64,000 nt of DNA, taken from NCBI GenBank assembly GCA_964291265.2, contig OZ219747.1, positions 864,001 to 928,000 of the forward strand. Direction: 5' to 3'. The notes beneath the pieces are model-generated. The model had not been told where the DNA came from. It made no database searches and was given only the letters and a program-made list of their open reading frames with translations. Each line of letters begins with the position of its first letter. Positions within the stretch are counted from its first letter, which is position 1. Of the stretch, positions 41,638-64,000 are shown in pieces. A program made the position numbers and the translations under genes. This stretch comes from Alphaproteobacteria bacterium (lineage in GTDB: Bacteria > Pseudomonadota > Alphaproteobacteria > SP197).

Positions 41638-41685
41638 TGTTCCCAAGCGGACAGGTTTTGCGCTGACAGCTTGAGGGAAACCATC

Positions 41686-44600
41686 ATGAGTGGAAGGACA
41701 ATCTGGGGAACTGGCAGCGACGACGCGCTGGTCGGCGGTGCCGACGACGACACACTATACGGCCGTGAAGGCGATGATACGCTGGAAGGCGAAGCTGGCG
41801 ACGACACGCTCGAAGGTGGCGCCGGCGACGACATGCTCGACGGTGGCGCCGGCGACGATGTGCTGGAAGGCGAAGCTGGCGACGACGAACTGCAAGGCTC
41901 CGCTGGTGACGACACGCTGAAAGGCGGTGAAGGCGACGACGAACTGTGGGGCGATGCCGGCGCCGACACGATTGTCGGCGGTGCCGGCGACGACACCTTT
42001 GCGTTTCGCGTCGGCGACGGCCGAGACGTGATTGCCGACTTCGCGGATGGCGACATCATTCGATTTTACGGTGTTCGTTTCGGGTTTGACGATCTGGACA
42101 TTCGGCAGGACGGCAACGATGCCGTGATTTACTACGGCGGCGGTGACAGGATCACGCTGTCCAATGTGAAGGCCTCTTCCCTGGATGCGGGCGATTTCCG
42201 GTTTACCCGTGATAGTCTTTACGGCGGCGGCGGCGACGACACGCTGGTCGGCGATGCCGGCGACGACACGCTATACGGTGACGCCGGCAACGACATGCTC
42301 GATGGCGGTGAAGGCGACGACTGGCTGAGCGGCGATGCCGGCGACGACGAACTGTGGGGCGATGCCGGCGCCGACACGCTGGTCGGCGGTACCGGCGACG
42401 ACACCTTTGTGTTTCGCGTCGGCGACGGCCGAGACGTGATTGCCGACTTCGCGGATGGCGACATCATTCGATTTGATGGCGTTCGTTTCGGGTATGGTGA
42501 TCTGGACATCCGTCAGGACGGCAAGGACACCTTGGTTTCCTACGGCGGCGGCGATGACAGGATCACGTTGTCCAATGTGAAGGCCTCTTCCCTGGACGCG
42601 GGTGATTTCCGGTTCATCGGTGTCAGGCTGTCCGGCACTGAAGGCGACGACACCTTGTCCGGCGGCGCCGGCGACGACGTGCTGTCCGGTGGTGCTGGCG
42701 ACGATCGGCTGGAAGGCGGCGGCGGCGACGACTGGCTGTATGGCGATGCTGGCGACGATGAACTGTACGGTGGTACCGGCGACGACAAGCTTTACGGCGA
42801 TGCTGGCGACGATGAACTGTACGGTGGTGCCGGGGACGACAAGCTTTACGGCGATGCTGGCGACGACACCTTTGCGTTTCGCGTCGGCGACGGCCGAGAC
42901 GTGATTGCCGACTTCGCGGATGGCGACATCATTCGATTTGATGGCGTTCGTTTCGGGTATGGTGATCTGGACATCCGGCAGGACGGCAATGACGCCTTGG
43001 TTTCCTATGGCGGCGATGACAGGATCACGCTGTCCAATGTGAATGCCTCATACCTGGGTGCGGGCGATTTCCGGTTCATCGGTGTCAAGCTGTCCGGTAC
43101 TGAAGGCAACGACACGCTGCGCGGCGGCGCGAGCGACGACACACTGTCTGGTGGTGCCGGCCAGGACGAACTGTTCGGCGGTGCCGGCGACGACATGCTC
43201 GATGGCGGTGAAGGCGACGACACGCTGCGCGGCGGCGCGGACGACGACACGCTGTCTGGTGGTGCCGGCCAGGACGAACTGTACGGTGGTGCCGGCGACG
43301 ACACGCTGTCCGGTGGTGCCGGCGACGACACCTTTGCGTTTCACGTCGGCGACGGCCGGGACGTGATTGCCGACTTCGCGGATGGCGACGTCATTCGATT
43401 TGATGGTGTTCGTTTCGGGCATGGCTATCTGGACATTCGGCAGGACGGCAAGGATGCCGTGATTTCCTACGGCGATGACAGGATCACGCTGTCCAATGTG
43501 AAGGCACCTTCCCTGGATGCGGGCGATTTCCGATTCATCGGTGTCAGTCTGTCCGGCACTGAAGGCGACGACAGGCTGTCCGGCGGTGTCGGCGACGACA
43601 CGCTGTCCGGTGGTGCCGGCGACGACACGCTGATCGGCAAGGACGGCGACGACACGCTGTCCGGCGGTGCCGGCGACGACATCTTTGCGTTTCACGTCGG
43701 CGACGGCCGAGACGTGATTGCCGACTTCGCGGATGGCGACATCATTCGACTTTATGGCGTTCGTCCCGGGCATGACGGTCTGGACATCCGGCAGGACGGC
43801 AAGGATGCCGTGATTTACTACGGCGGCGATGACAGGATCACGCTGTCGAACGTGAAGGCCTCTTCCCTGGATGCGGACGATTTCCGGTTTACCGGTGTCA
43901 GTCTGTACGGCGGCGCCGGCGACGACACGCTGTCCGGTAGCGCCTTCGACGACACGCTGATTGGCGAAGCCGGCGACGACACGCTGTCCGGCGAGGCCGG
44001 CGACGACATGCTGTACGGCGGCGCCGACGACGACACCTTCGTGCTTCGCGTCGGCGACGGCCGGGACGTGATTGCCGACTTCGCGGATGGTGATGTCATT
44101 CGATTTGATGGCGTTCGTTTCGGGTATGACGATCTGGACATCCGGCAGGACGGCAGGGACGTCTTGGTTTCCTACGGCGGCGGCGATGACAGGATCACGC
44201 TGTCCAATGTGAAGGCCTCTTCCCTGGATGCGGGCGATTTCCGGTTCATCGGTGTCAGACTGTCCGGCACTGAAGGCAACGACACGCTGCGCGGTGGCGC
44301 GAACGACGACACGCTGTCTGGTGGTGCTGGCCAAGACATACTGCACGGCGGCGCCGGCGACGACACGCTGAAAGGCGGCAAATGGAACGACTGGCTGTAC
44401 GGCGATGCCGGCGACGACACGCTGACTGGTGGTGCTGGCCGAGACGAACTGTACGGCGGTGCCGGGGACGACACGCTGGACGGCGGTTCCGGCTACGACT
44501 GGCTGGAGGGCGATGCTGGCGTTGACACGCTGGAAGGCGGCGGCGGCGACGATGATCTGGAAGGCGGCGACGGCGACGACGAACTGTACGGTGGTGCCGG

Positions 44601-45573
44601 GGACGACACGCTGTGGGGCGACGCCGGCGACGACTTGCTGTTCGGCGGCACCGGCAACGACTGGTGGATGTACGGCGGCGCCGGCGACGACGAACTGCAA
44701 GGCGGTGCCGGCAAAGACTCGCTGGAAGGCGGCACCGGCGACGACTGGCTGGAGGGTGGCACCGGCGACGACAAGCTGTACGGCGGCGTCAAAGACGGAG
44801 AGCCGCTGTCCGGCGGCACGGGCGACGACACCTTTGTATTTCGCGTCGGCGACGGCCGAGACGTGATTGTCGACTTCGCGGATGGCGATGTCATTCGATT
44901 TGATGGCGTTGGTTTCGGGTATGACGATCTGGACATCCGGTGGGACGGCAAGGATGCCGTGATTTACTATGGCGACGACGACAGGATCACGCTGAAGGGC
45001 GTGAAGGCTTCTTCCATGGACGCGGACGATTTCCGGTTTTCCGCCGGCATTGACCTGAGCGGCGGGGCGGACCACGACACGCTCCGCGGCGGCGTCGGCA
45101 ATGACACGCTGACGGGCGGCGACGGCAACGACAGGCTCAGTGGCGGCGAGGGCGCCGACACGATCAACGGCGATGCCGGCGACGACACGCTCCGCGGCGG
45201 CGTCGGCAATGACACGCTGACGGGCGGCGACGGCAGCGACATGCTCAGTGGCGGCGAGGGCGCCGACACGATCAACGGCGATGCCGGCGACGACACGCTC
45301 CGCGGCGGCGTCGGCAATGACACGCTGACGGGCGGCGACGGCAACGACAGGCTCAATGGCGGTGACGGCAATGACACGCTGACGGGCGGCGACAGCAATG
45401 ACAGGCTGTTTGGCGGCGTCGGCAATGACACGCTGACCGGTGGCGCCGGCGACGACTGGCTCCAGGGCGGTGCGGGAACCGACATGATGACCGGCGGAGC
45501 CGGCAACGACACCTTCCTCTACAACGGATGGGGCGATGACACCATCTCGGACTTCGCTGCGGAGGAACATTGA
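41686..45573 (+). CDS. RTX (hemolysin-type Ca2+-binding) repeat protein with seven internal modules
   Basis: Dozens of LxGGxGDD nonapeptides plus 7 copies of DTFxFRVGDGRDVIADFADGD...ITLSNVKASSLDAGDFRF. Confidence 0.93.
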   Translation: MSGRTIWGTGSDDALVGGADDDTLYGREGDDTLEGEAGDDTLEGGAGDDMLDGGAGDDVLEGEAGDDELQGSAGDDTLKGGEGDDELWGDAGADTIVGGAGDDTFAFRVGDGRDVIADFADGDIIRFYGVRFGFDDLDIRQDGNDAVIYYGGGDRITLSNVKASSLDAGDFRFTRDSLYGGGGDDTLVGDAGDDTLYGDAGNDMLDGGEGDDWLSGDAGDDELWGDAGADTLVGGTGDDTFVFRVGDGRDVIADFADGDIIRFDGVRFGYGDLDIRQDGKDTLVSYGGGDDRITLSNVKASSLDAGDFRFIGVRLSGTEGDDTLSGGAGDDVLSGGAGDDRLEGGGGDDWLYGDAGDDELYGGTGDDKLYGDAGDDELYGGAGDDKLYGDAGDDTFAFRVGDGRDVIADFADGDIIRFDGVRFGYGDLDIRQDGNDALVSYGGDDRITLSNVNASYLGAGDFRFIGVKLSGTEGNDTLRGGASDDTLSGGAGQDELFGGAGDDMLDGGEGDDTLRGGADDDTLSGGAGQDELYGGAGDDTLSGGAGDDTFAFHVGDGRDVIADFADGDVIRFDGVRFGHGYLDIRQDGKDAVISYGDDRITLSNVKAPSLDAGDFRFIGVSLSGTEGDDRLSGGVGDDTLSGGAGDDTLIGKDGDDTLSGGAGDDIFAFHVGDGRDVIADFADGDIIRLYGVRPGHDGLDIRQDGKDAVIYYGGDDRITLSNVKASSLDADDFRFTGVSLYGGAGDDTLSGSAFDDTLIGEAGDDTLSGEAGDDMLYGGADDDTFVLRVGDGRDVIADFADGDVIRFDGVRFGYDDLDIRQDGRDVLVSYGGGDDRITLSNVKASSLDAGDFRFIGVRLSGTEGNDTLRGGANDDTLSGGAGQDILHGGAGDDTLKGGKWNDWLYGDAGDDTLTGGAGRDELYGGAGDDTLDGGSGYDWLEGDAGVDTLEGGGGDDDLEGGDGDDELYGGAGDDTLWGDAGDDLLFGGTGNDWWMYGGAGDDELQGGAGKDSLEGGTGDDWLEGGTGDDKLYGGVKDGEPLSGGTGDDTFVFRVGDGRDVIVDFADGDVIRFDGVGFGYDDLDIRWDGKDAVIYYGDDDRITLKGVKASSMDADDFRFSAGIDLSGGADHDTLRGGVGNDTLTGGDGNDRLSGGEGADTINGDAGDDTLRGGVGNDTLTGGDGSDMLSGGEGADTINGDAGDDTLRGGVGNDTLTGGDGNDRLNGGDGNDTLTGGDSNDRLFGGVGNDTLTGGAGDDWLQGGAGTDMMTGGAGNDTFLYNGWGDDTISDFAAEEH

Positions 45574-52092: not shown

Positions 52093-53751
52093 ATGCGCCA
52101 TGCACCCAACGCGCCTGTTCTGGCTCCACGGGGGCCGGAGCTCAACACGAAGGGCTGGCCCCAGGAGACCGCCTATCGGCTGCTGATGAACAACCTGGAG
52201 GTGGCCGAGGACTGGAAACGGCTCATCGTCTACGGCGGTCGCGGCAAGGCGGCGCGCGACTGGGACTCCTATTTTTGCATCGTCGACATGCTCGAGACCC
52301 TGGAAGGCGACGAGACCCTTGTCGTGCAGTCGGGCAAGCCGGTCGCCATTTGGCCGACCCATGAGTGGGCGCCCCGGGTGCTGATCTCGAATTCCATGCT
52401 GGTGCCTCACTGGAGCACGCTCGAGCACTTCAACGAACTCGAGGCGAAGGGTCTCATGATGTACGGGCAGATGACGGCGGGCTCGTGGTGCAACATCGGC
52501 TCCCAGGGCATCGTCCAGGGGACCTACGAGACCTTCGCCACGCTTGCTAGGATGAAGTTCGGCGGCACGCTGGAAGGGCGCGTCACGATCACCGGCGGGC
52601 TCGGCATGTTCAGCGGCATCATGCCGCACTGCATCACGCTCAATGGCGGTGTGAGCATCGGTGTCGAGATCGACCCGGAACGAATAGCCCGCCGCCTCGA
52701 TCTCGGGTTTGTTCACGAGGTCCTGGATGACCCGGACATCGCCTGGCAGAGGGCGAGGGAGTGTGCCGACCGGGGTGAAGCCCGCGCCTTCGCCCTCCAC
52801 GGCAACATGTCCGATGTCCTGAACGGCTACCTCGAGAACGGGGTCCCCTTCGACATCGTGACCGACCAGACGTCGGCCCACGACATGCTCGAAGGTTATG
52901 TTCCCGGTGGCATGACGCTGGCCGAGGCGCTCGACCTGCGCCGGAAGGACCCCGCCACCTACATCGAGCGGGCCCGCGACACGGCGGTCCGCCAGGTCCG
53001 CGCCATGGTCGAGTACCAGAGACGCGGCGCCATGGTGTTCGACTACGGCAACAACATCCGCCAGGAGGCCTACAATCACGGCTGCAAGGATGCCTTCGCC
53101 TTCCCGGGGTTCGTGGAAGCGTTCATCCGGCCCCTGTTCTGCGTGGGACGCGGTCCCTTCCGCTGGATCTGTCTTTCCGGGGAGGAAGGCGACCTGCGCA
53201 AGACAGAGGAAGCGGCCCTTGACGAGTTCGGCGACGACGAGGTGTTCGCCAACTGGGTGCGCCTTGCTTCCCAACACCAGCCCATCGAGGGCCTGCCGGC
53301 GCGCCTCGGCTACCTGGGATACGGACAGCGTGCCCGCTTCGGCCGGATTCTGAACGACATGGTGCGCTCCGGCGAGCTTGCCGGGCCTGTTGCAATGAGC
53401 CGCGACCATCTCGACACCGGTTCCGTGGCTTCGCCGAACCGGGAGACCGAGGGCATGATGGATGGCAGCGATGCGGTGGCCGACTGGCCCATCCTCAACG
53501 CCCTGCTCAACACCGCCTGCGGCGCCACCTACGTGGCGGTCCACAACGGCGGCGGCGTGGGTATCGGCTATGCGACCCACGCCGGACTGGTGGTTCTGGC
53601 TGATGGCACGGACCTCGCCGAACGCAAGATCGAACGCTGTCTCACCGTGGATCCGGGCATGGGGATCGTGCGCCACGCGGACGCCGGCTACGACCTGGCG
53701 AAGGATGCCGCGCGCAGGCACGGTCTGCGCATGCCCATGCTTGAGACCTAG
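52093..53751 (+). CDS. hutU: Urocanate hydratase family protein (divergent)
   Basis: LMNNL, VYGGRGKAAR, GQMTAGSW, GSQGIVQGT, TDQTSAHD, FDYGN, GRGPFRW, RDHLD, GGGVGIG, RHADAGY. Confidence 0.88.
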   Translation: MRHAPNAPVLAPRGPELNTKGWPQETAYRLLMNNLEVAEDWKRLIVYGGRGKAARDWDSYFCIVDMLETLEGDETLVVQSGKPVAIWPTHEWAPRVLISNSMLVPHWSTLEHFNELEAKGLMMYGQMTAGSWCNIGSQGIVQGTYETFATLARMKFGGTLEGRVTITGGLGMFSGIMPHCITLNGGVSIGVEIDPERIARRLDLGFVHEVLDDPDIAWQRARECADRGEARAFALHGNMSDVLNGYLENGVPFDIVTDQTSAHDMLEGYVPGGMTLAEALDLRRKDPATYIERARDTAVRQVRAMVEYQRRGAMVFDYGNNIRQEAYNHGCKDAFAFPGFVEAFIRPLFCVGRGPFRWICLSGEEGDLRKTEEAALDEFGDDEVFANWVRLASQHQPIEGLPARLGYLGYGQRARFGRILNDMVRSGELAGPVAMSRDHLDTGSVASPNRETEGMMDGSDAVADWPILNALLNTACGATYVAVHNGGGVGIGYATHAGLVVLADGTDLAERKIERCLTVDPGMGIVRHADAGYDLAKDAARRHGLRMPMLET

Positions 53752-53929
53752 CCCGGTTCCGTCACCCAAGGGCGCCCCTCCACATTCGTTCGTAAGCCCA
53801 CACCACGGGACGCACCTGTGGTGCTAAACAACTGAACTAACGCCGTATTTTCTCTCTCGATCCTGCAACTGCGGGCGATTGCGCGAACGGAATCTCCCGT
53901 TCCTGCAACTCGCATTCGAGGGAGACTCC

Positions 53930-55057
53930 ATGGCTGCAAAACATCTCACCGAGAGCCGCATCAAGGCCCTTCGTCCTCGCAGGACTGCCCGGGACACCCG
54001 TGACGCCCATCTCAAGGGATTCGGCATCCGTGTCTACCCATCGGGGCGCAAGCGCTACTTCATCCATACCCAGCATGATGGACAGAGGATCTGGAAGATC
54101 GTCGGTGACGCTGCCGGGATCGGTCTCGCCGAGGCCAGACAACGCGCACAAGCCATGCTGACCGCCATCAGAAGCGACGCTCCCGCTTCATCCGACGAAA
54201 CCCTGTTCGAAACGGTCGCCGAGGAGGTCTTTCGCCGGTACGGGCGAACATGGAAGTCCAGCACACTCGAGGTCAACCGGAACTACTACCGCAATCAGAT
54301 CCTGCCGTGGTTCCGTGGACGCCAGATCGCGGAGATCGTGCGCGGCGACGTTCAGGAGTGGTTCGCCTCCCTGCACGCGACGCCGGTCGCGGCCGACCGG
54401 TCGGCTCCGGTTCTCTCCGTCATCATGGCCCGTGCCGAGGACTACGGATACCGGCCTGAAGGCAGCAATCCGTGCCGGAGCATCAGGCGTTATCGACGGC
54501 AGGGACGGGAACGTTTCTGTTGCGTGGAGGAGGTCCGCCGGCTCGGGCGCGTGCTGCAGGACCATGAAGCGCACTTCCCGGCACAGGTAGCGATCATCCG
54601 CCTCCTGCTCCTCACCGGGTGCCGAAGCCAGGAGATCCTGTCGCTGCGCTGGGCGGACTACCGCGAGGGTCATCTCCATCTCGCGGATTCCAAGACGGGG
54701 CCACGCATGGTCTGGCTGTCGGCTCCCGCCCGGAAGATCCTGACAACGTTGCCTCGTCGTTCGCCTTGGATGTTTCCATCGCCAAGGACCACCGCCAGGT
54801 CCATCTCGCAAGGCGCCATCGGATACTTCTGGATGCGTGTGCGCTCCGCAGCGGGCCTGGAGGATGTGCGCCTTCACGACCTGCGTCACACCTACGCCTC
54901 CCTTGCCGTCATGCACGGAGAGAACATTCTCACCGTCGGTCGACTGCTCGGTCACAACGATCCCGCCACCACTCTCAAGTACACGCATCTCGCCGACGGC
55001 ATGATGGCTGAAGCGGCAGAGGCCGTGGGCTCCGTTCTCGGAAGGACTGACGCATGA
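53930..55057 (+). CDS. Tyrosine recombinase/integrase with arm-binding domain (first of a tandem pair)
   Basis: GFGIRVYPSGRKRY, LLTGCRSQE, HDLRHTYAS, LLGH...TLKYTH; GGAG RBS. Confidence 0.93.
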   Translation: MAAKHLTESRIKALRPRRTARDTRDAHLKGFGIRVYPSGRKRYFIHTQHDGQRIWKIVGDAAGIGLAEARQRAQAMLTAIRSDAPASSDETLFETVAEEVFRRYGRTWKSSTLEVNRNYYRNQILPWFRGRQIAEIVRGDVQEWFASLHATPVAADRSAPVLSVIMARAEDYGYRPEGSNPCRSIRRYRRQGRERFCCVEEVRRLGRVLQDHEAHFPAQVAIIRLLLLTGCRSQEILSLRWADYREGHLHLADSKTGPRMVWLSAPARKILTTLPRRSPWMFPSPRTTARSISQGAIGYFWMRVRSAAGLEDVRLHDLRHTYASLAVMHGENILTVGRLLGHNDPATTLKYTHLADGMMAEAAEAVGSVLGRTDA

Positions 55058-56193
55058 ACCGCAGGAAGAAGCTGACAGATACCCTCGTGCGCAACCTCAA
55101 GCCGCGACCCCGGGAGTACACGCTTCGCGATACCTTCGTTCCCTCTCTCGGGGTTCGCGTCCACCCGTCGGGAGGCCGCGGCTTCGTCCACATCGACGGC
55201 GGAAGAAGGACATCGCTTGGTCCGGTCGCCTTCAAGACGGTCAAGGTGGCCCGCAGGGAGAGCCTCGAAAGACTGGCAGCCGGTCACGACGACAGGACTT
55301 CGGCCCCGTTGTTCAGGGACTTTGCTGTCGGCGCATGGCGCGACTCCTGGATCCATCGGTGCAAGCCCGGGACGATCCAGTGGCGCGACAGGTACCTTCA
55401 ATCCCGCCTGTTGCCGACATTTGGTTCCCGATGCCTGGACCAGATCACACCCGCCATGGTGCACCGCTGGTTCGACGACTACAGCAGAACGGCGCCCGGC
55501 GGGGCCAATTCATGCCTGAAGGTCCTTCGCCACATCCTCAATCACGCCATGGCCTGCGGCCACATCACAGCGAACCCGGCAAGGTCGGTGAAACCCAACC
55601 CGCGCAGGAAGCTCACCCGCTTCCTCTCGCGCGAGGAACTTCATCGGCTGCATGGCGTGCTGGACCGCCACGACAATCTCCAGGGGATCAGTCGATCACG
55701 CCGAATGCAGATCGACATCATCCGGCTTCTCATGCTTACCGGGTGTCGCAAGAACGAGATCGTCCGCCTGCAGAAGCAGGAGGTGCTCGGCGACAGTCTC
55801 CGGCTCCGCAACAGCAAGGTCGGACCGCGTACGGTCGTTCTGAATGCCCCGGCCCGGGCCATCATCGAGCGCCGTCTTCCCGGCGACAGCGCATTTGTCT
55901 TCCCGTCCCCCCGCGATCCCGGACGGGCGCTCAACGACGACCTCCCACTGTGGTACGTCGTCCGCAGGGAGGCCGGCATCGAGGATGTCAGGCTCCATGA
56001 TCTGCGCCATACATTCGCCAGCCATGCCGTCATGCAGGGAACGCCGCTTCCCGTCGTCGCAAGGCTTCTCGGTCACGCGCAGACGACCATGACCCTGCGC
56101 TACGCCCACACGGGTGATCGCGAAACCGAAGTCGCCGCCGAGCGGATCGGAACGGCAATCTCGGACATGCTCGGGTTGGACGCGACTGCCTGA
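55054..56193 (+). CDS. Tyrosine recombinase/integrase (second of a tandem pair)
   Basis: LGVRVHPSG, LTGCRKNE, HDLRHTFAS, LLGH...TLRYAH; ATGA overlap with the first integrase. Confidence 0.93.
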   Translation: MNRRKKLTDTLVRNLKPRPREYTLRDTFVPSLGVRVHPSGGRGFVHIDGGRRTSLGPVAFKTVKVARRESLERLAAGHDDRTSAPLFRDFAVGAWRDSWIHRCKPGTIQWRDRYLQSRLLPTFGSRCLDQITPAMVHRWFDDYSRTAPGGANSCLKVLRHILNHAMACGHITANPARSVKPNPRRKLTRFLSREELHRLHGVLDRHDNLQGISRSRRMQIDIIRLLMLTGCRKNEIVRLQKQEVLGDSLRLRNSKVGPRTVVLNAPARAIIERRLPGDSAFVFPSPRDPGRALNDDLPLWYVVRREAGIEDVRLHDLRHTFASHAVMQGTPLPVVARLLGHAQTTMTLRYAHTGDRETEVAAERIGTAISDMLGLDATA

Positions 56194-56699
56194 CAATCAT
56201 GGGGTCTGCGCCATCGTCAAGTCCGGTCTGCCAGAGACCCGAGCACCCCGAGGACCATGTCAGCTGCTTGCTCAACTTCCATGTCTGTTGAGAATCAACC
56301 GAAACAGAAGCGGATCGATTCATCACACTCCATCGCATCAAGGCCAATGGCAGTTAAGCATATGCGACGGTTAAGCATGAGCAGGACGTGCCGATAACGG
56401 TGCAGCGTGAAGCAGGAATACCGTGCAGTTTCAACCGTGCTCGATTGAAAGACGTCCTGTCAAGACGTCCCAAGAGTCTTTCAGAAGCTTGGTAGTCTTC
56501 CGATCAATGCCTTCGAACTTTCTGAACACTAAACATAGTTTCGCATGAACCCCAACAACTCGTCGATCCACCGGAAGGATCCCTCCACACCACTCAATTG
56601 ACTTTACTTCGGCTTCGTGACATAAAGGCCGGTCTCCGACGCTAGGCAAAACCGTAAACCGTTTACCCTCCACCGTCTGAACCAAGCCAAGGCTCTCTC

Positions 56700-59600
56700 A
56701 TGGACCGCTCTCTCGCCCCCGCCGAAATCATAGAATCGACCATCGAAGACTATTCATCCGGATTGATGGACTGTAGCACTGCCAGAAAAAGGATACGCCA
56801 CACCTTGCTTCAGTTAGCTGAGATGCCGGATGACACGTCTCTTTCCTTCTCCAACATTTTTGAGCGCCTCGCAACGACAACGTCTTTGCCAAGAATCAAG
56901 GAATTCAGCACACTCACTATCCGCCTTGTCTCATGCAACGGCCTACTGCCGGAATCCATCGAGAGGTCGGCCAATCGACACTTGGTGAAACTCATCGAGC
57001 AGGGCAACGATACAATTACCGAGATCTTGCCTGACGGAAAGAAGTCGCTAAACCACGCGCGCCTTGCTGCCTACGCAAGATTCCACTCCGATGCGTGCCA
57101 GAGCCTGCAGATCCTGATTCAACCGATCTCGGGACTTCACGATCTAGTCGGCCGCCGCCAGTCCCTTATGCAGACGTTGAACCACGGCCATCTCAAGTCG
57201 TATCTCAACCCTCTCGGATTTCAGGCCCCAATCACGTCAGTCAACAGCATTCTCAAGCTTGTCGATCAAACCGATAAATCACATGGCAGAGAGCTTCAGA
57301 CCAACCTGCAAAATTTGTTGGAAACAGTAAGTGAGGAAATTGACCAACTCGAACTCAACCCAGTTTTTTTGTTAGACACTTTATTCTGCCTTTTCTGCGT
57401 AATGTTCAAATGGCAATCGACTTGCATCGATCTAACATGGCAGAAAAATTCGATTGCGTCATTGCTCCACCCGCCCACCTTTACGAGATACCAAAGAAAT
57501 ATCCCTTGCATGTTGTCAATAAGCCGTTCGAGCTCCACATCCCCCTGGAGAAAACAGGACCAGGCGTGGCCCTCAACGTACGCGCTTGCTGTATCGCGGA
57601 CAATTGCGAGGTCCTTACTGACGATACCAATCTCGGGGACATCGACTCAGACTCATTCATCCTGACACTACATCTCTCTCTCGATGCTCCCACCGACGGC
57701 TTGGAGGTTGATGTCAGCATCGAATGGGACGTTCTCGGCAAAACTGCGACCCGAACCTGCGATTTCACCTTACGCGTTCTGGCCCAGCGGACAGACCTCG
57801 ACTGGAAGGCGCTGTCCCAAATGCAACCATACCGTCTAGAGGTTGCCCATGACGAGCACTTCTACGGCCGCCGAGACGCCCTACGTAGATTGATGCACAG
57901 CTTGGATCCCCACTCCATGCAGTCCTGCTACATCACGGGCCAGAAACGGGTCGGCAAGAGTTCCCTAGCCCGTGCAGTCGAGGCAGGGATAAAGAACGCT
58001 CCGCACGATGGCGCGTATGAGTATGATGTCCTTTACTTGGAGTGCGGTGAAATCCGCCACGCCACCGGACCAGATACACTCCAGGAGCTCGGACAGCGAC
58101 TGGAGGTTTTCCTGTCAAATTTGTTGCCACGCCACGTCGAATGGGCTAATCAAAACTACTCTTCATCGCTAGTACCCCTCAATCGTCTCCTTCTTTCTCT
58201 GAACCGCGAAGTACCCGATGTCCGCGCGGTCGTCATTCTCGACGAATTCGACGAAATAAACGAAGACTTGTATCGCTATGGGGAACTAGCCAATACGTTC
58301 TTTTTAAATCTGCGCACCTTGTCCTCGAAATCAAACATTGCGTTCATTTTAGTAGGTGCAGAAAAAATGCCTTATGTAATGTCGTCGCAAGGTGATAAAT
58401 TAAACCGCTTTGCGCGCGAATCCCTTGACAGCTTTGATATGTCGTCGGAATGGACTGATTATCGTGACTTGGTTGAAAAACCTATCGCATCCAGTATCAA
58501 AGTGCATGAGGCCGCCATTCGCAAGCTTTTCGAATTGACCAATGGACACCCATATTTCACAAAAGTTCTGTGCAATGCCTTGTACGAACGAGCAGTCCAG
58601 CACAACGATGCCGAGATCTCCCGTGCCGAGGTGGACAAAGCCGCGGAACGCATAATAGACGGGATCGACATCAACTCTTTCGCCCACTACTGGCGCGACG
58701 GCATAAGAGGCGGTGCAACCGACGTGGAAATCGTATCTTTGAACCGCTGTCGCCTCCTTGTTGCCTGGGCGAGAGCTGCAAGAGCAGGATTATCTCCTAC
58801 TCACGAAAACATTTCGAGGAACCTTTACTCAAGCCAATTGCCAACCGGCGATGTGCTGCCTCTGCTAGATGACTTCTGCCGACGCAACGTGCTTCGACAG
58901 AAGGACGATGCCTACTGTCCAACCGTCAGCCTGTTTGCAGACTGGTTGCGCGAGGGCGGATTTTCCAAACTGGTTAGCGACCAGCTCGGCGACGAACTGG
59001 CAGCCGCAAAACAAAGCCGCGAAGACAAGGCGTATGTCCATGCGCATGAGATCAAAACATTGGTCGATCGCTGGGATTTGTATCAAGGCCGTCAGATTAC
59101 TTCTGATGACGTAAGAGCCTGGTTCGAACAGGTGGACAGCAATGTGGATCGGCGAATACTGTTCAAGATACTTCAAAATGTAAGATTTCTGCGGGAACTT
59201 GAAATCAGAGAAAAACTTGCACAGGCACATCGGCGAATCCGTTCGAAGCTGCCTGACTTCGTAAAACGGTCCCGGGCGCAGCGGCGTGACGATATTTTTG
59301 TTACATATGGCGATAACCTCGGAAAAAGCGGTGCTCACTATGCAAGCATGTATGCAGCCGTGAATGAAATCGCCACCTCCAATATCGTGATACCAGGGGA
59401 AGTCGTGTCTGCCGTAAGCTCGGTAAAGTTAAACAAACAAGTTGGTGTCGTCCTGGTCGATGACATGCTTGGCACCGGCAACAATATGATCGAGAGACTG
59501 TCCAACCTGAGCGATACCTTTCAGGACGGCGGGATTGGGACGAAGGTTCCCTTGTCGGTAGTGGTCTTGTGCGGAACGTCGAACGGCGAGGCCGCTGTGA

Positions 59601-59905
59601 GAGCTCTTTTGGAACGTGAGATGGAGAACGCCGATCTGGAAGTTTGCGAGACCATCGGTGAGGATAGCTTTGCGTTCCCGGATGGGCTCGGATTCTGGGA
59701 GTCCAATGAGGAAAAGAGCACGGCCAAAACTCTAGCGCGCAACCTTGGGGCGCGCGTTCAAAAAAGAGCCCCCCTAGGATACGGAGAACAAGGCCTACTA
59801 GTGACTTTTTCACGAAATTGTCCCAACAATTCACTGCCAATTCTTCACGGCACAGGTAGGGGTGAGACAAACTGGCATCCAATTTTTCCTCGTCAGATTT
59901 CATAG
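56700..59905 (+). CDS. Large STAND-like P-loop NTPase fused to a C-terminal PRTase-like domain; 1-nt frameshift at about 57358-57370
   Basis: ORFs 56700-57665 and 57410-59905 join across cccagtttttttg. Motifs: QPY..HFYGR, GQKRVGKSS, ILDEFD, LTNGHPY; then GKSG, VVLVDDMLGTG, PLGYG, FSRNCPNNSLPILH, WHPIFPR. Confidence 0.8.
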
Positions 59906-60318
59906 GGCAAGACCGTTTGCGCTTTTGCGGTATGTATCTGTCAGGGCGAGGGAGCGATTCTCATACGGGGTAATTTTGTTTAATGTTTCCCAAGTGTTTC
60001 ATCATATGGACCATGCCGCCGTCCTTCCCGGAAACATCTATGTAAGTGCCTCATAAATGGCTTTTTTACAGTCATCGGAACACCTTTGAACCAATAGTGA
60101 TGATGAAACGTAGCCGTGATAGCAACCACCGGTATGGGTCAAATTAAGTCCGAATATGCGTCCAATTCCTGAATTTTGATACAGCACTCAGAACAACGTG
60201 GGCAGATACTCGGCAGAGTGCGTACGTTCCAAGTACATAAGAGGTACTAACGATGAACATGTTACCCCGTATGAGAACCACACCCCAGGGCGATCTGCTG
60301 AGATACTGCCGAAGTCGT

Positions 60319-60492
60319 TCAATCCTGGTTGCGCTTACAGTCGATGTGGATGGTCCTGACGAACACCTTGGCGAGGTCTTCGGGTGTGTCTTCGGCAAAC
60401 TCTACCTCTTCCTTGAACACGGCTTTCGACGGCTGATAGATTGACTTAACAAGTGTAACTCGTAATGGCTCTTTGCGTTTTTGGTTAGTCAC
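60319..60492 (-). CDS. Hypothetical 57-aa protein
   Basis: GGAGAG then GTG: MTNQKRKEPLRVTLVKSIYQPSKAVFKEEVEFAEDTPEDLAKVFVRTIHIDCKRNQD*. Confidence 0.35.
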   Translation of the reverse strand: MTNQKRKEPLRVTLVKSIYQPSKAVFKEEVEFAEDTPEDLAKVFVRTIHIDCKRNQD

Positions 60493-60588
60493 GGAGGCTC
60501 TCCGTTGCTGCGGTTGTAGTGAGTGGGACTACATGCTCGGCGGAATCAACCCGCGATTTAGATGTCGCTCTTCTTGTTGGTCATGGCA

Positions 60589-61457
60589 TTACCTCTGGCG
60601 AATATGCCCAAGTGTTGCTATACGCTCATCAACGGTCAGCCGGGTTGCGTCAAGCATGGATCGAATGGCGTTCAGGAGGTGCTCAAGCACATCCACGTAG
60701 ATAGGGTTTGTTGCGGTACCGGTTTTTTCCGGCGCTGCTTGCGGAGAACATAGATGTTATCGATGTCGGTGGTTTCGATGTCCACGTCCTTGCTGACATC
60801 GTAGGTCTCCGTCACCAAGAAAAACAAGCAGTACGGATTGCCTGTCTTAATCTTTGTTGCCGTGGCAACACTGCCTTCGTACATCGTCTTGTCGAGATAC
60901 GTCTTGCACTCAATGCAGACAATAGGGATTGAGATTCGGTGTGCCCCGCCAGTGCTACTGGTCAGCATTTCTTCTTTATAGATGCCAACGTCTTGATCTT
61001 TGACGTTCAGTTTAATCTCGACCCCTTCCTTGAAAGCCGCCTTGTCGGTGTAGGAGAAATACAAGCTGCTGTAAGCTGACACGGAGCCGTACTGCAGCAC
61101 GTCATTCCCAAACTCGTGTTTCAATATCCTGCAAAGGAACTCCTCAATAATCGTGGGGGCAAATTTCGATTGAGATGAGTAAACATTGTGCTCTTCTACG
61201 TAGTCCTTGTAACGATTCAGCGCGTCAACGGCGACTTTCAACCATTGGCGACTTCCATTCGGTTTCGCCGATGCCCGCTGAGCATCACCGATTTCCCCAG
61301 TAATGCCGCCTATGGCGTCGCTAAAACTCATGTACTCACCAATGAAATTGCTAATCCGCGGGTCCTCCTGCTTGCGTAGGATGTTGCTGGCATGACGTCC
61401 ACCAGCCTTCTTGATGCCCTCCAGATAGTCGATTTGTGCGCGGTCTAAATAAGACAT
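60589..61457 (-). CDS. Bpu10I-family type II restriction endonuclease; frameshift in an A-run near 60725
   Basis: PTIIEEF, DQDVGI, PIVCIECKTYLDKTMYEG, KTGNP, IYVLRKQRR. The shifted frame continues NPIYVDVLEHLLNAIRSML...QR* to 60589. Confidence 0.85.
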
Positions 61458-62332
61458 CTCTTGATCCTGTCTCGCGCGACTCTGTTGTACTTGGCTGACA
61501 AATCAATCCCGAGATACCGCCTGTTGTTCTGATGCGCAAGAAGAGTCGTGGTCCCCACGCCGTTGAATGGGTCCAGCACAACATCCCCGCGGAAACTGAA
61601 CAACTGGATTACTCGTCTTGCCAGCTCTTCGGGGAAGACGGAGGGGTGATCAAACTCCTTCATGCGCCTTTCTGGTGCGATCGACCACTTGGCATAGACC
61701 CATTTCTTGAAGTCGTCTCCTGATATATCGGCATTTTCTGCGCAGCCTTTTTTCTTAACGGATCCCTTGCAGAAAACCTCGACAAATTCCCATGTGTATT
61801 TGAGGTAGGGACTAGAAGGACTTTTCCAGCTACCCCAAGCAGTATATTTGCAGTTGTAGTTGTTCTTCTCCCACAGTATCTCCCCCTTCCAAATCAGCCC
61901 TCTGTCAAACAGATGGTGGGAGATTACATGGTGACTGGGGATGTAATCGGAGAAAAGCGGCTGCACATTGATGATTAGCCGCCCACCGTGTTTGAGGACA
62001 CGAATGCACTCATCGAGGATGCTGAACAACTGTGCAAAAAAATCCTTCCAAACGACTGTGTCGTCCTCCGCCTCGTAGTCCAGACCAAAGTTGTAGGGCG
62101 GCGAGGTAAACACTAAGTCGATGCAGTTGTCCGGTAGTTTCTTGAGTACGACAAGACTATCCGCCGTAATGATCTTGTTCTGGAACTTCTCAGGTAGTGG
62201 ATTGATCTCCGACGTAAACACATTGGCGTAGTGGTGCTTGCCTCTTTTCGTTTCCTTTTCCTTCCGACCGGTGACCTTTCTTTCTTTGTTTAGTTCGGCA
62301 TGTCTCGGGAAAGGTACTCCGACAGGAGCCAT
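61445..62332 (-). CDS. Site-specific DNA methyltransferase, beta class, likely N4-cytosine
   Basis: DLVFTSPPYN, HPSVFPEEL, VLDPFNGVGTT, YLGIDL. Overlaps the REase start; the 5' end abuts IS1595, so the true start is uncertain. Confidence 0.92.
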   Translation of the reverse strand: MAPVGVPFPRHAELNKERKVTGRKEKETKRGKHHYANVFTSEINPLPEKFQNKIITADSLVVLKKLPDNCIDLVFTSPPYNFGLDYEAEDDTVVWKDFFAQLFSILDECIRVLKHGGRLIINVQPLFSDYIPSHHVISHHLFDRGLIWKGEILWEKNNYNCKYTAWGSWKSPSSPYLKYTWEFVEVFCKGSVKKKGCAENADISGDDFKKWVYAKWSIAPERRMKEFDHPSVFPEELARRVIQLFSFRGDVVLDPFNGVGTTTLLAHQNNRRYLGIDLSAKYNRVARDRIKRCLI

Positions 62333-63170
62333 TACAATCGCGCTCCGTTGTCGAGACCGTTTAATGCGATCAAGTCCTCATACCGGACACGCTTGCCCTC
62401 CATGCCGGATGCAACCGTGGCCATGATGTTGACGGTGTGTTTCTCGCGCAGGTTGTGCTTGACCGCGAACACCTGAACGTAACGGTCCAGGTGCTTCGCG
62501 GACAACTTGTGGCATGTGCCTTTGTGCGCCCTCTTGAGCATCGCCCAGAAGGAGTCGATGTCGTTCGTATATGCCTGCCCCCGGACGTATTCGGAGACGT
62601 CATGCTCGGCCGCCTCATGGCCGAAGGTCTGGGTTAGTCCAATATAGGCACTGGCGTCGTCCGTGTAGACCATCGCCCCCTTCTCCAAGTTATCACGCAC
62701 GAAACCTAGCAACGTCTTGGCGGCGGTGTCATCCACAGCTTTGGCCGTGACCTTGTTGGTGTCTCGGTCCTTCGTGTCCACCACGGCAGTCTTGACGACT
62801 GCGCCACGGCCCGTGAGCTGCTTGCGCTTGCTCTTTGGCATGTTCTTGCGGATACCGCCTACATAGGTTTCGTTGACCTCAACCGGCCCGGAGAACAGCG
62901 GGTTCTTGCTGCCATAGGCGGTGCGGAGCCGGTGCATAAGGTGCCATGCCGACTTCTGCCTGATCTCCAAGTCGCGGTGCAACTTCATCGAAGACACAGA
63001 CTTGAAGCACGTCATCGAGAGATAGATGGCTTTGGCCCAAGTCTGATAGCCGAGGTTGCTGACTTCCATGACCGTGCGGGTCTTGGCCGAGAACCGCTTG
63101 CCGTATTATACTTCTCGCGGCACCGGAAGCGCATGGTCTTGTGCTTCGCACCCGACTGGACGTTCCCCCT
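62332..63170 (-). mobile_element. IS1595-family transposase, degenerate
   Basis: SSMKLHRDL..QKSAWHLMHRLR, VEVNETYVGG (D to N), VYTDD, TNDIDSFWAMLKR, KHLDRY. The zinc-ribbon N-terminus is broken. Confidence 0.9.
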
Positions 63171-63270
63171 TGATGGCTGTCATAGCAAAGGAGTGTCGAC
63201 TGAAAAGGCCCTGTAGGCTGAGCGAAAGCCTCGTCGTGGGCATTGCGGCCTTCGCGCCAGCGCGAGACGG

Positions 63271-63479
63271 TCATGAACCCTCCCCGGCCTCGACGGCTAT
63301 GATCGCCGCCAGCACTTGCCAGACGTTCCCCCGGCGGCATGGCCTCGTAGCGCCGGCCCCAGTTGGCCGCCTTGCGCTTGATGCGCTGGCGGGCGGTGAA
63401 GTTCCGCCCCGCGTAGCGCGACCAGTGCACCCGGTCGGGAGCAAAGTTGAACCATACCACCTCGGTCCGCACCTGGGCC
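63271..63479 (-). pseudogene. C-terminal fragment of a D12-class methylase-like gene, cut by IS66
   Basis: RTEVVWFNFAPDRVHWSRYAGRNFTARQRIKRKAANWGRRYEAMPPGERLA begins right at the IS66 end. Confidence 0.65.
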
Positions 63480-64000
63480 GTAAGCGTTCGGCCGTTCGGT
63501 GATGGCTGATTTTGGTTGGTTTGGGTCTTGCTGACTATCGTCTGAGAAAGTGCTGGTAAACTCGTTTGGTCTCGATTATGGTCGAGGCCATGAAGACTTT
63601 TGCCGAGACGCGCGGAGCGACACAGCAGCTGACGGGAGGTGGTGACGGCCTATGTCGGGCGTCAGTGGCCTTGTCATGCGAGGCGCCTGACTGGCGTGCG
63701 CTCTATGAGACGGAGCGGGTTCGTGCGGATGCGGCGGAAGCGCGTATGCGTGACCTGCGCCGTGCGAAGAATTCTGCCCGTGCCCGTGCGGGCACATTCA
63801 AGTTTCATCTCGACCGCACTCGTGATCAGCTCAAGGAGGCTCGCCGGGAGGTGAAGCGTGGACAGGCCCGAGCGGAGGCGCTGGAGCAGGAAAGGGACGC
63901 TCTGAAGCTCAAGAACGCTGAACAGGCGAGCGAGCTGAGGAATCTCCGCGGGACGCGTGCCAAGCACGCGACGGCGCGCTTCGGGTCGAAGAGCGAGAAA
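63480..64000 (+). mobile_element. IS66-family element: left end and transposase N-terminus (continues beyond the window)
   Basis: GTAAGCGTTC terminus. Open frame from ATG 63590 with DWRALYETER, a coiled coil and RFGSKSEK. Confidence 0.88.

Follow-up and report, generated by a model that had tools for sequence, protein, structure and literature searches.

Oligomerisation of the STAND module upon sensing is established for the Avs proteins (PMC13581612), and C-terminal effectors in bacterial NLR (nucleotide-binding, leucine-rich repeat)-type proteins are described as rare and as placed after the repeats (Kibby et al., bioRxiv 2022.07.19.500537). Phosphoribosyltransferase (PRTase) effectors are known from other defence systems: the PRTase of Retron-Eco11, a member of a group of retron effectors with a G-x14-PNNxxP motif, halves phosphoribosyl pyrophosphate (PRPP) upon activation (PMC12746101), and mutation of the DD pair of ShosT abolishes its toxicity (PMC11961720). 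In pSlfn5, an Ig-like domain has been proven to sense phage and sets phage specificity (PMC13056530). We describe a gene that joins such elements in one protein, located at 56700-59905 (+) of a 64,000-nt window (the whole stretch of DNA analysed, positions 864,001-928,000 of contig OZ219747.1 of an Alphaproteobacteria bacterium; coordinates refer to the window unless stated otherwise). The STAND-PRTase-CE protein that it encodes is a real and widespread variant built from known parts, present here as a probably broken copy.

A four-part protein with a C-terminal PRTase-CE domain

The first open reading frame (ORF) starts at ATG 56700 and resembles relatives over 224 codons. From 57344 a second frame remains open up to a stop at 59903-59905, and the switch between them is located at the sole T7 run (57364-57370, +), which is one base short of frame. 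Joined at this run, the two frames give a protein of 1068 aa, matching the roughly 1070 aa that a first-pass annotation, made from the sequence alone, had obtained by repairing one homopolymer indel. The four parts named in that annotation (helical, Ig-like, STAND and PRTase) follow one another in the same order in intact relatives, and the motifs it quoted are all present at the positions given. The N-terminal all-helical bundle (56700-57371, +, for the part in the first frame, residues 1-224 of ~250) is the most variable region and a candidate sensor or inhibitor; it gave only weak, unnamed matches in the ESM Atlas (0.76), and neither a recognisable enzyme fold nor an invariant catalytic set was detected in it. 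It is followed by an Ig-like beta-sandwich, likewise a candidate sensor (57464-57790, +; FELHIPLEK at 57527, LEVDVSIEW at 57701). The STAND nucleotide-binding domain (57827-58489, +) opens with PY/FYGR (57827-57871) and carries Walker A GQKRVGKSS (57938-57964) and Walker B ILDEFD (58235-58252), and leads into a helical domain with the GxP motif (TNGHPY, 58538-58555), a winged helix and a linker helix (58490-59029, +). Walker A/B, a GxP helical domain and a winged helix are the features by which Leipe et al. reportedly defined STAND proteins in 2004; all are found here, and the STAND call of the first-pass annotation is upheld.

The C-terminal domain (59030-59905, +) contains GKSG (59321), the PRPP loop VVLVDDMLGTG (59447-59479), GYG (59777) and PNNSLPIL (59822-59845), so that both the PRPP-loop acidic pair and the G-x14-PNNxxP motif are present in the repaired protein. 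It matched the PF24390 (PRTase-CE) hidden Markov model (HMM) over model positions 1-253 of 253 (E 1.1e-42; 147 bits against a gathering score of 27). The name PRTase-CE is said to have been introduced by Nicastro et al. in 2023. A PADLOC run, one of the checks proposed at the outset, returned PRTase_III-A (E 2.9e-31) and no Avs model. HMMs and predicted secondary structure thus point to the PRTase fold that had been proposed for an effector-type C-terminus. Searches of PDB sequences returned no match for the downstream piece and only matches with E above 0.1 for the family profile.

A widespread and patchily distributed family

Homologs of the downstream piece numbered 164, and single-ORF intact relatives were common among the 120 listed, 89 of which are 1040-1100 aa long; 104 of the 120 were also matched by the upstream piece, at identities of up to 82%. 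The best 150 of the representatives at 50% identity all had E below 1e-188, and 119 of these were at least 1000 aa in length. Among these 119 full-length representatives, Walker A was found in 117 and GxP in all 119, as was the PRPP-loop acidic pair (105 by pattern and 14 by eye, 13 with DD and 1 with ED); the PNN motif and the acidic pair are retained across the intact group. Mean pairwise identity in the same set was 32% for the helical region, 41% for the Ig-like domain, 61% for the nucleotide-binding domain and 49% for the PRTase domain, and the N-terminal region is a candidate for recognition because identity is lowest there.

The ESM Atlas holds two clusters of this architecture (133 and 125 members), together with a 714-aa AAA/PRTase-CE form, and named members come from Alpha- and Gammaproteobacteria, Binatia, Cyanobacteria and Bacteroidota. 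A search of 22 genomes of the same genus and of 18 other relatives did not recover the gene (0/40), and a phylum sample gave a partial match in 1 of 400 other genomes. STAND proteins with a C-terminal PRTase-CE domain form a widespread single-gene family that is patchily spread and accessory. Related STAND proteins of 1088-1259 aa at four loci (L051, L053, L067 and L074) have long N-termini and end at the winged helix without an effector.

A sister group with an eroded PRTase and an added tail

More distant relatives keep the Ig-like domain, the STAND module, the winged helix and the same Walker A, and have an eroded PRPP loop and ~150 appended residues. A search seeded with one sister protein gave 114 matches, 113 of them with the PRTase region. 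The acidic-pair pattern was missing in all 74 matches with a tail of over 90 aa and present in 34 of 39 tailless ones, the other 5 being partial proteins; these matches are kin, and the counts are not independent events. Schlafen AlbA_2 tails were detected at L031, L048 and L050 and in 3 matches of the sister search (E down to 2e-15), and an R-x4-6-H motif occurs in 70 of the 74 tails, one of which belongs to a Schlafen protein. A quick tree of 62 NTPase cores requires two origins of the tail, and an approximately unbiased (AU) test on 29 of the 62 sequences rejects a single tailed clade (p-AU 0.009). The sister group therefore appears to have lost the PRPP-loop acidic pair and, on two or more occasions, to have gained an RNase of HEPN-like or Schlafen type at the C-terminus. 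Against this stand the long branch in play in that quick tree and the HEPN assignment itself, since 4 of 10 tails matched HEPN families, with E of 0.001-0.04 and none reaching the gathering score, and no solved HEPN structure was matched by the tails. The C-terminus is probably the effector end of these proteins because the RNase swap occurs there.

Neighbours encoding restriction-modification (RM), BREX, TIR or nuclease functions were present at 9 of 13 sister loci, a count without background control. A RecD-like SF1 helicase gene lies within ~13 nt of the sister STAND gene at L026, L029, L034, L038 and L043, often with GmrSD nearby, and the two genes possibly form a two-gene system. A conserved TIR protein and a gene of ~510 aa lie upstream of sister STANDs of the Schlafen type (L031:1530-4399) and the HEPN-like type (L047:447-3288), and some sister proteins start with an S4 RNA-binding domain (L026:1479; P0338, P0343).

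The frameshift in this copy

The first-pass annotation treated the indel as something to repair. There is no clear case for an assembly error, because a Logan contig of 3813 nt and depth 60.8 equals window positions 56166-59978 with 0 differences and 0 gaps, the T7 run included; no alternative allele at the run was seen in that contig, and flanking core contigs have depths of 64-69. The Bpu10I-type restriction endonuclease (REase) gene nearby is frameshifted too, near its C-terminus at an A6 run (~60722-60727), with the same read support and an allele shared with the Logan contig, next to an intact methyltransferase (MTase) gene. Elsewhere, disruptions were seen at 4 of 11 genome loci that carry close homologs, insertions accounting for two and frameshifts for the other two, and A/T runs of 6, 7 and 8 number 172, 35 and 12 genome-wide, with no depletion at length 8. 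The frameshift is probably a real break in this genome, and this gene copy probably an inactive pseudogene.

Several points weigh against a real break. Both breaks in the island that carries the gene are one-base losses in homopolymers, and a housekeeping gene, that for the sulfite reductase beta subunit at ~2,483,300 of the contig, also shows a one-base gap; 2 of 23 other control matches were split, two rows matching the STAND-PRTase gene being left out. Moreover, the Logan contig comes from the one public run that contains this DNA, which may be the assembly's own source and so is not independent evidence. A sequencing or assembly error, or bypass by slippage at U-UUU-UUG, a possible -1 slip site at T7, would leave the copy functional; we consider this rather unlikely, given the deep contig without an alternative allele and the undepleted runs of 8. 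Programmed frameshifting was rejected as unlikely, since relatives lack the T run at this position and no strong RNA structure was found downstream of T7 (z -1.05). The region upstream of the gene showed no sigma-70-like promoter, and no obvious ribosome-binding site was seen by eye before ATGs 57410 or 57437.

Mobile island and neighbours

A ~35-kb island (~917,900-953,000 of the contig; L092, L093) carries the gene as its first cargo. At its edges a tandem tyrosine-integrase pair is present in two copies inverted to each other, the left at 53879-56193 (+) and the right at ~950,650-952,950 of the contig. GC content is 0.505-0.54 across the 1-kb bins of 56001-60000 against ~0.65 in the flanks, in agreement with the lower-GC setting noted earlier. 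Besides this gene, the island carries two RM pairs, AbiEii, a TrwC relaxase, NikA-like genes and IS66/IS1595. The downstream type II RM pair (60672-62332, -) consists of the intact N6/N4 MTase (61445-62332) and the Bpu10I-type REase (60672-61457, -), and the placement of the gene between an integrase pair and an RM system is confirmed. A 336-bp element resembling a miniature inverted-repeat transposable element, with 24-nt terminal inverted repeats (59950-60285, no strand assigned), is multi-copy and does not belong to the system; the genome contains 6 or more additional copies, and three sequencing runs contain many variants of it. A 578-aa reverse transcriptase (L093:17897-19630, +) is encoded ~29 kb from the gene, just outside the right integrase pair and the island.

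No conserved partner or antitoxin was found across the 24 intact-type loci compared. The 227 ORFs neighbouring 33 loci included no reverse transcriptase family, and the neighbours scanned included no DprA family; an Rfam search of window positions 53000-64000 gave no match of note. The defence-island setting of homologs, which the first-pass annotation put forward for checking, is only partial. A defence or toxin-antitoxin domain lies within 5 kb at 9 of 20 intact-type loci (RM in 3; ThiF with DUF6527, SLATT, AAA_21, PIN, BrnA and MazF), a raw count without background control from ORFs that were chosen greedily, so that genes may be missed, whereas 11 of 20 have no clear neighbour of this kind within 5 kb and the gene sits among housekeeping genes at L004, L005 and L006. 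Apart from these features, the window encodes a 1300-aa glycine-rich RTX-type repeat protein with tandem larger repeats (41671-45573, +).

Proposed mechanism and alternatives

Intact family members would most likely act in abortive-infection phage defence by draining PRPP, and the order of sensor and weapon is likely the opposite of that in known bacterial NLR proteins. A phage protein would be bound by the variable N-terminal part, made up of the helical bundle and the Ig-like domain, the STAND module would exchange ADP for ATP and oligomerise, and oligomerisation would gather the PRTase domains and switch them on, after which PRPP or nucleotide pools would collapse and the infected cell would arrest. 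In the sister proteins, such a trigger would instead bring together RNases of HEPN-like or Schlafen type, each carried by a PRTase whose catalytic site has eroded. More tentatively, the whole may represent a back-to-front NLR class, with an N-terminal helical/Ig sensor, STAND oligomerisation and a C-terminal PRPP drain, in which the enzyme was more than once demoted to an RNase-bearing scaffold.

Beyond the loci without defence neighbours or amid housekeeping genes, some findings weigh against PRPP-draining defence with an N-terminal sensor. The low N-terminal identity may equally reflect plain relaxed constraint, no homologs were found in collections of 72,556 plasmids and 50,697 phages, and the best fold matches of the whole model fall on the NTPase part and include the DNA-binding Cdc6/Orc1, so DNA could be the trigger. 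The protein might be a defence protein of the usual orientation or one driven by DNA. Its PRTase fold would then serve as sensor or brake by binding PRPP or a nucleotide alarm, or phage DNA would be read by the Cdc6-like winged helix, with the output coming from the helical bundle or from DNA binding. This is unlikely, given that the intact group retains both the acidic pair and the PNN motif, that no recognisable enzyme fold or invariant catalytic set is seen in the helical domain, and that RNase effectors were added at the C-terminus and not at the N-terminus.

Other alternatives place the gene outside phage defence. It rides an island with relaxase and integrases, related integrase pairs adjoin the homologs at L001 and L008 and a type IV secretion cluster adjoins that at L010, all of which would suit a conflict gene directed at other mobile elements, or a module by which the integrative element secures addiction or exclusion; the lack of any antitoxin or constant partner at the intact-type loci, together with the many loci that are chromosomal and without transfer genes, makes this distinctly improbable. 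A non-immune signalling ATPase that links nucleotide salvage or PRPP status to metabolism is very improbable: metabolic genes do flank several loci, and STAND clades without a defence role are scattered among the defence clades (PMC13581612), but the neighbours are never conserved, none of the 40 relatives searched has the gene, the PRTase belongs to a family of conflict effectors and not of salvage enzymes, and RNase fusions make little sense for metabolism.

A recent survey of defence STANDs took sensors from the C-terminal region only (PMC13581612), and STAND families that sense N-terminally would be misread or missed by it. A one-gene, STAND-gated PRTase would also offer a simple handle on what defence PRTases make or destroy, given that the ShosT substrate is unknown and Eco11 shows only a 50% drop in PRPP (PMC11961720, PMC12746101), and the sisters with a dead PRTase plus an RNase are a natural experiment on effector replacement.

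Comparison with known systems

The first-pass annotation could not match the protein to a named system, and this result stands. NACHT (PF05729) scored 13 bits, below its gathering score of 26.7, and DS-32 (NF053875) 30.1 bits against a cut-off of 250; curated Avs models were absent from the PADLOC and NCBIfam matches, in a PADLOC copy of 2023 that predates Avs7-21; and PF24389 was not among the HMM matches at the locus, where PRTase and ATPase are fused in one gene. The defining features of type III-A retrons and ShosTA are likewise lacking. No description of a STAND-PRTase fusion was found in the literature searched, and the literature that named PRTase-CE may already include it. PRTase is not mentioned in Lee et al. 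2026 (PMC13581612; term search of the main text and 7 supplements) or in the available parts of the Kibby et al. preprint, the BREX survey and Kaur et al. 2021.

With the Avs and other bacterial NLR proteins (PMC13581612; bioRxiv 2022.07.19.500537) the protein shares a single large STAND polypeptide with an effector and variable modules, and likely oligomerisation triggered by a molecular pattern. Those proteins have an N-terminal effector and a C-terminal repeat sensor, whereas here neither is found: no repeats follow the winged helix in the predicted model, and the enzyme comes directly after it. The archaeal-type STAND ATPases PAB2304 (2qen) and SSO1545 (2fna) and Cdc6/Orc1 are ~350 aa long and have neither the N-terminal region nor the PRTase. 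pSlfn5 (PMC13056530) has an Ig-like domain of the same complement/macroglobulin type, and the Schlafen RNase recurs in the sister proteins, but it lacks STAND and PRTase, and the likeness in fold does not show that the ligand is the same.

On the effector side, the domain resembles the PRTase-CE conflict effectors in its full-length match above the gathering score and its intact PRPP loop, and is instead fused behind helical, Ig-like and STAND modules in one gene. The retron link drawn at the outset is borne out, as the PRTase effectors of type III-A retrons (Retron-Eco11, PMC12746101) share the PADLOC PRTase_III-A family, the PRPP motif and G-x14-PNNxxP, and the chemistry is likely the same; here there is no adjacent reverse transcriptase or noncoding RNA, and control likely comes from the fused STAND switch. 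ShosTA/DprA-PRTase, Ophion OpnC and DS-32 are likewise PRTase-type anti-phage effectors with other partners and architectures, the DprA-like antitoxin of ShosTA having no counterpart among the neighbours scanned. The inverted NLR-like layout proposed in the first-pass annotation thus gains from the conservation gradient and the C-terminal RNase swap, but its parts are not new: the PRTase domain is already catalogued (PF24390) in the same family as the type III-A retron effectors, and the STAND-PRTase-CE fusion has already been clustered by automatic databases. What is new here is the sister group, in which the NTPase is kept, the acidic pair lost and a C-terminal RNase gained.
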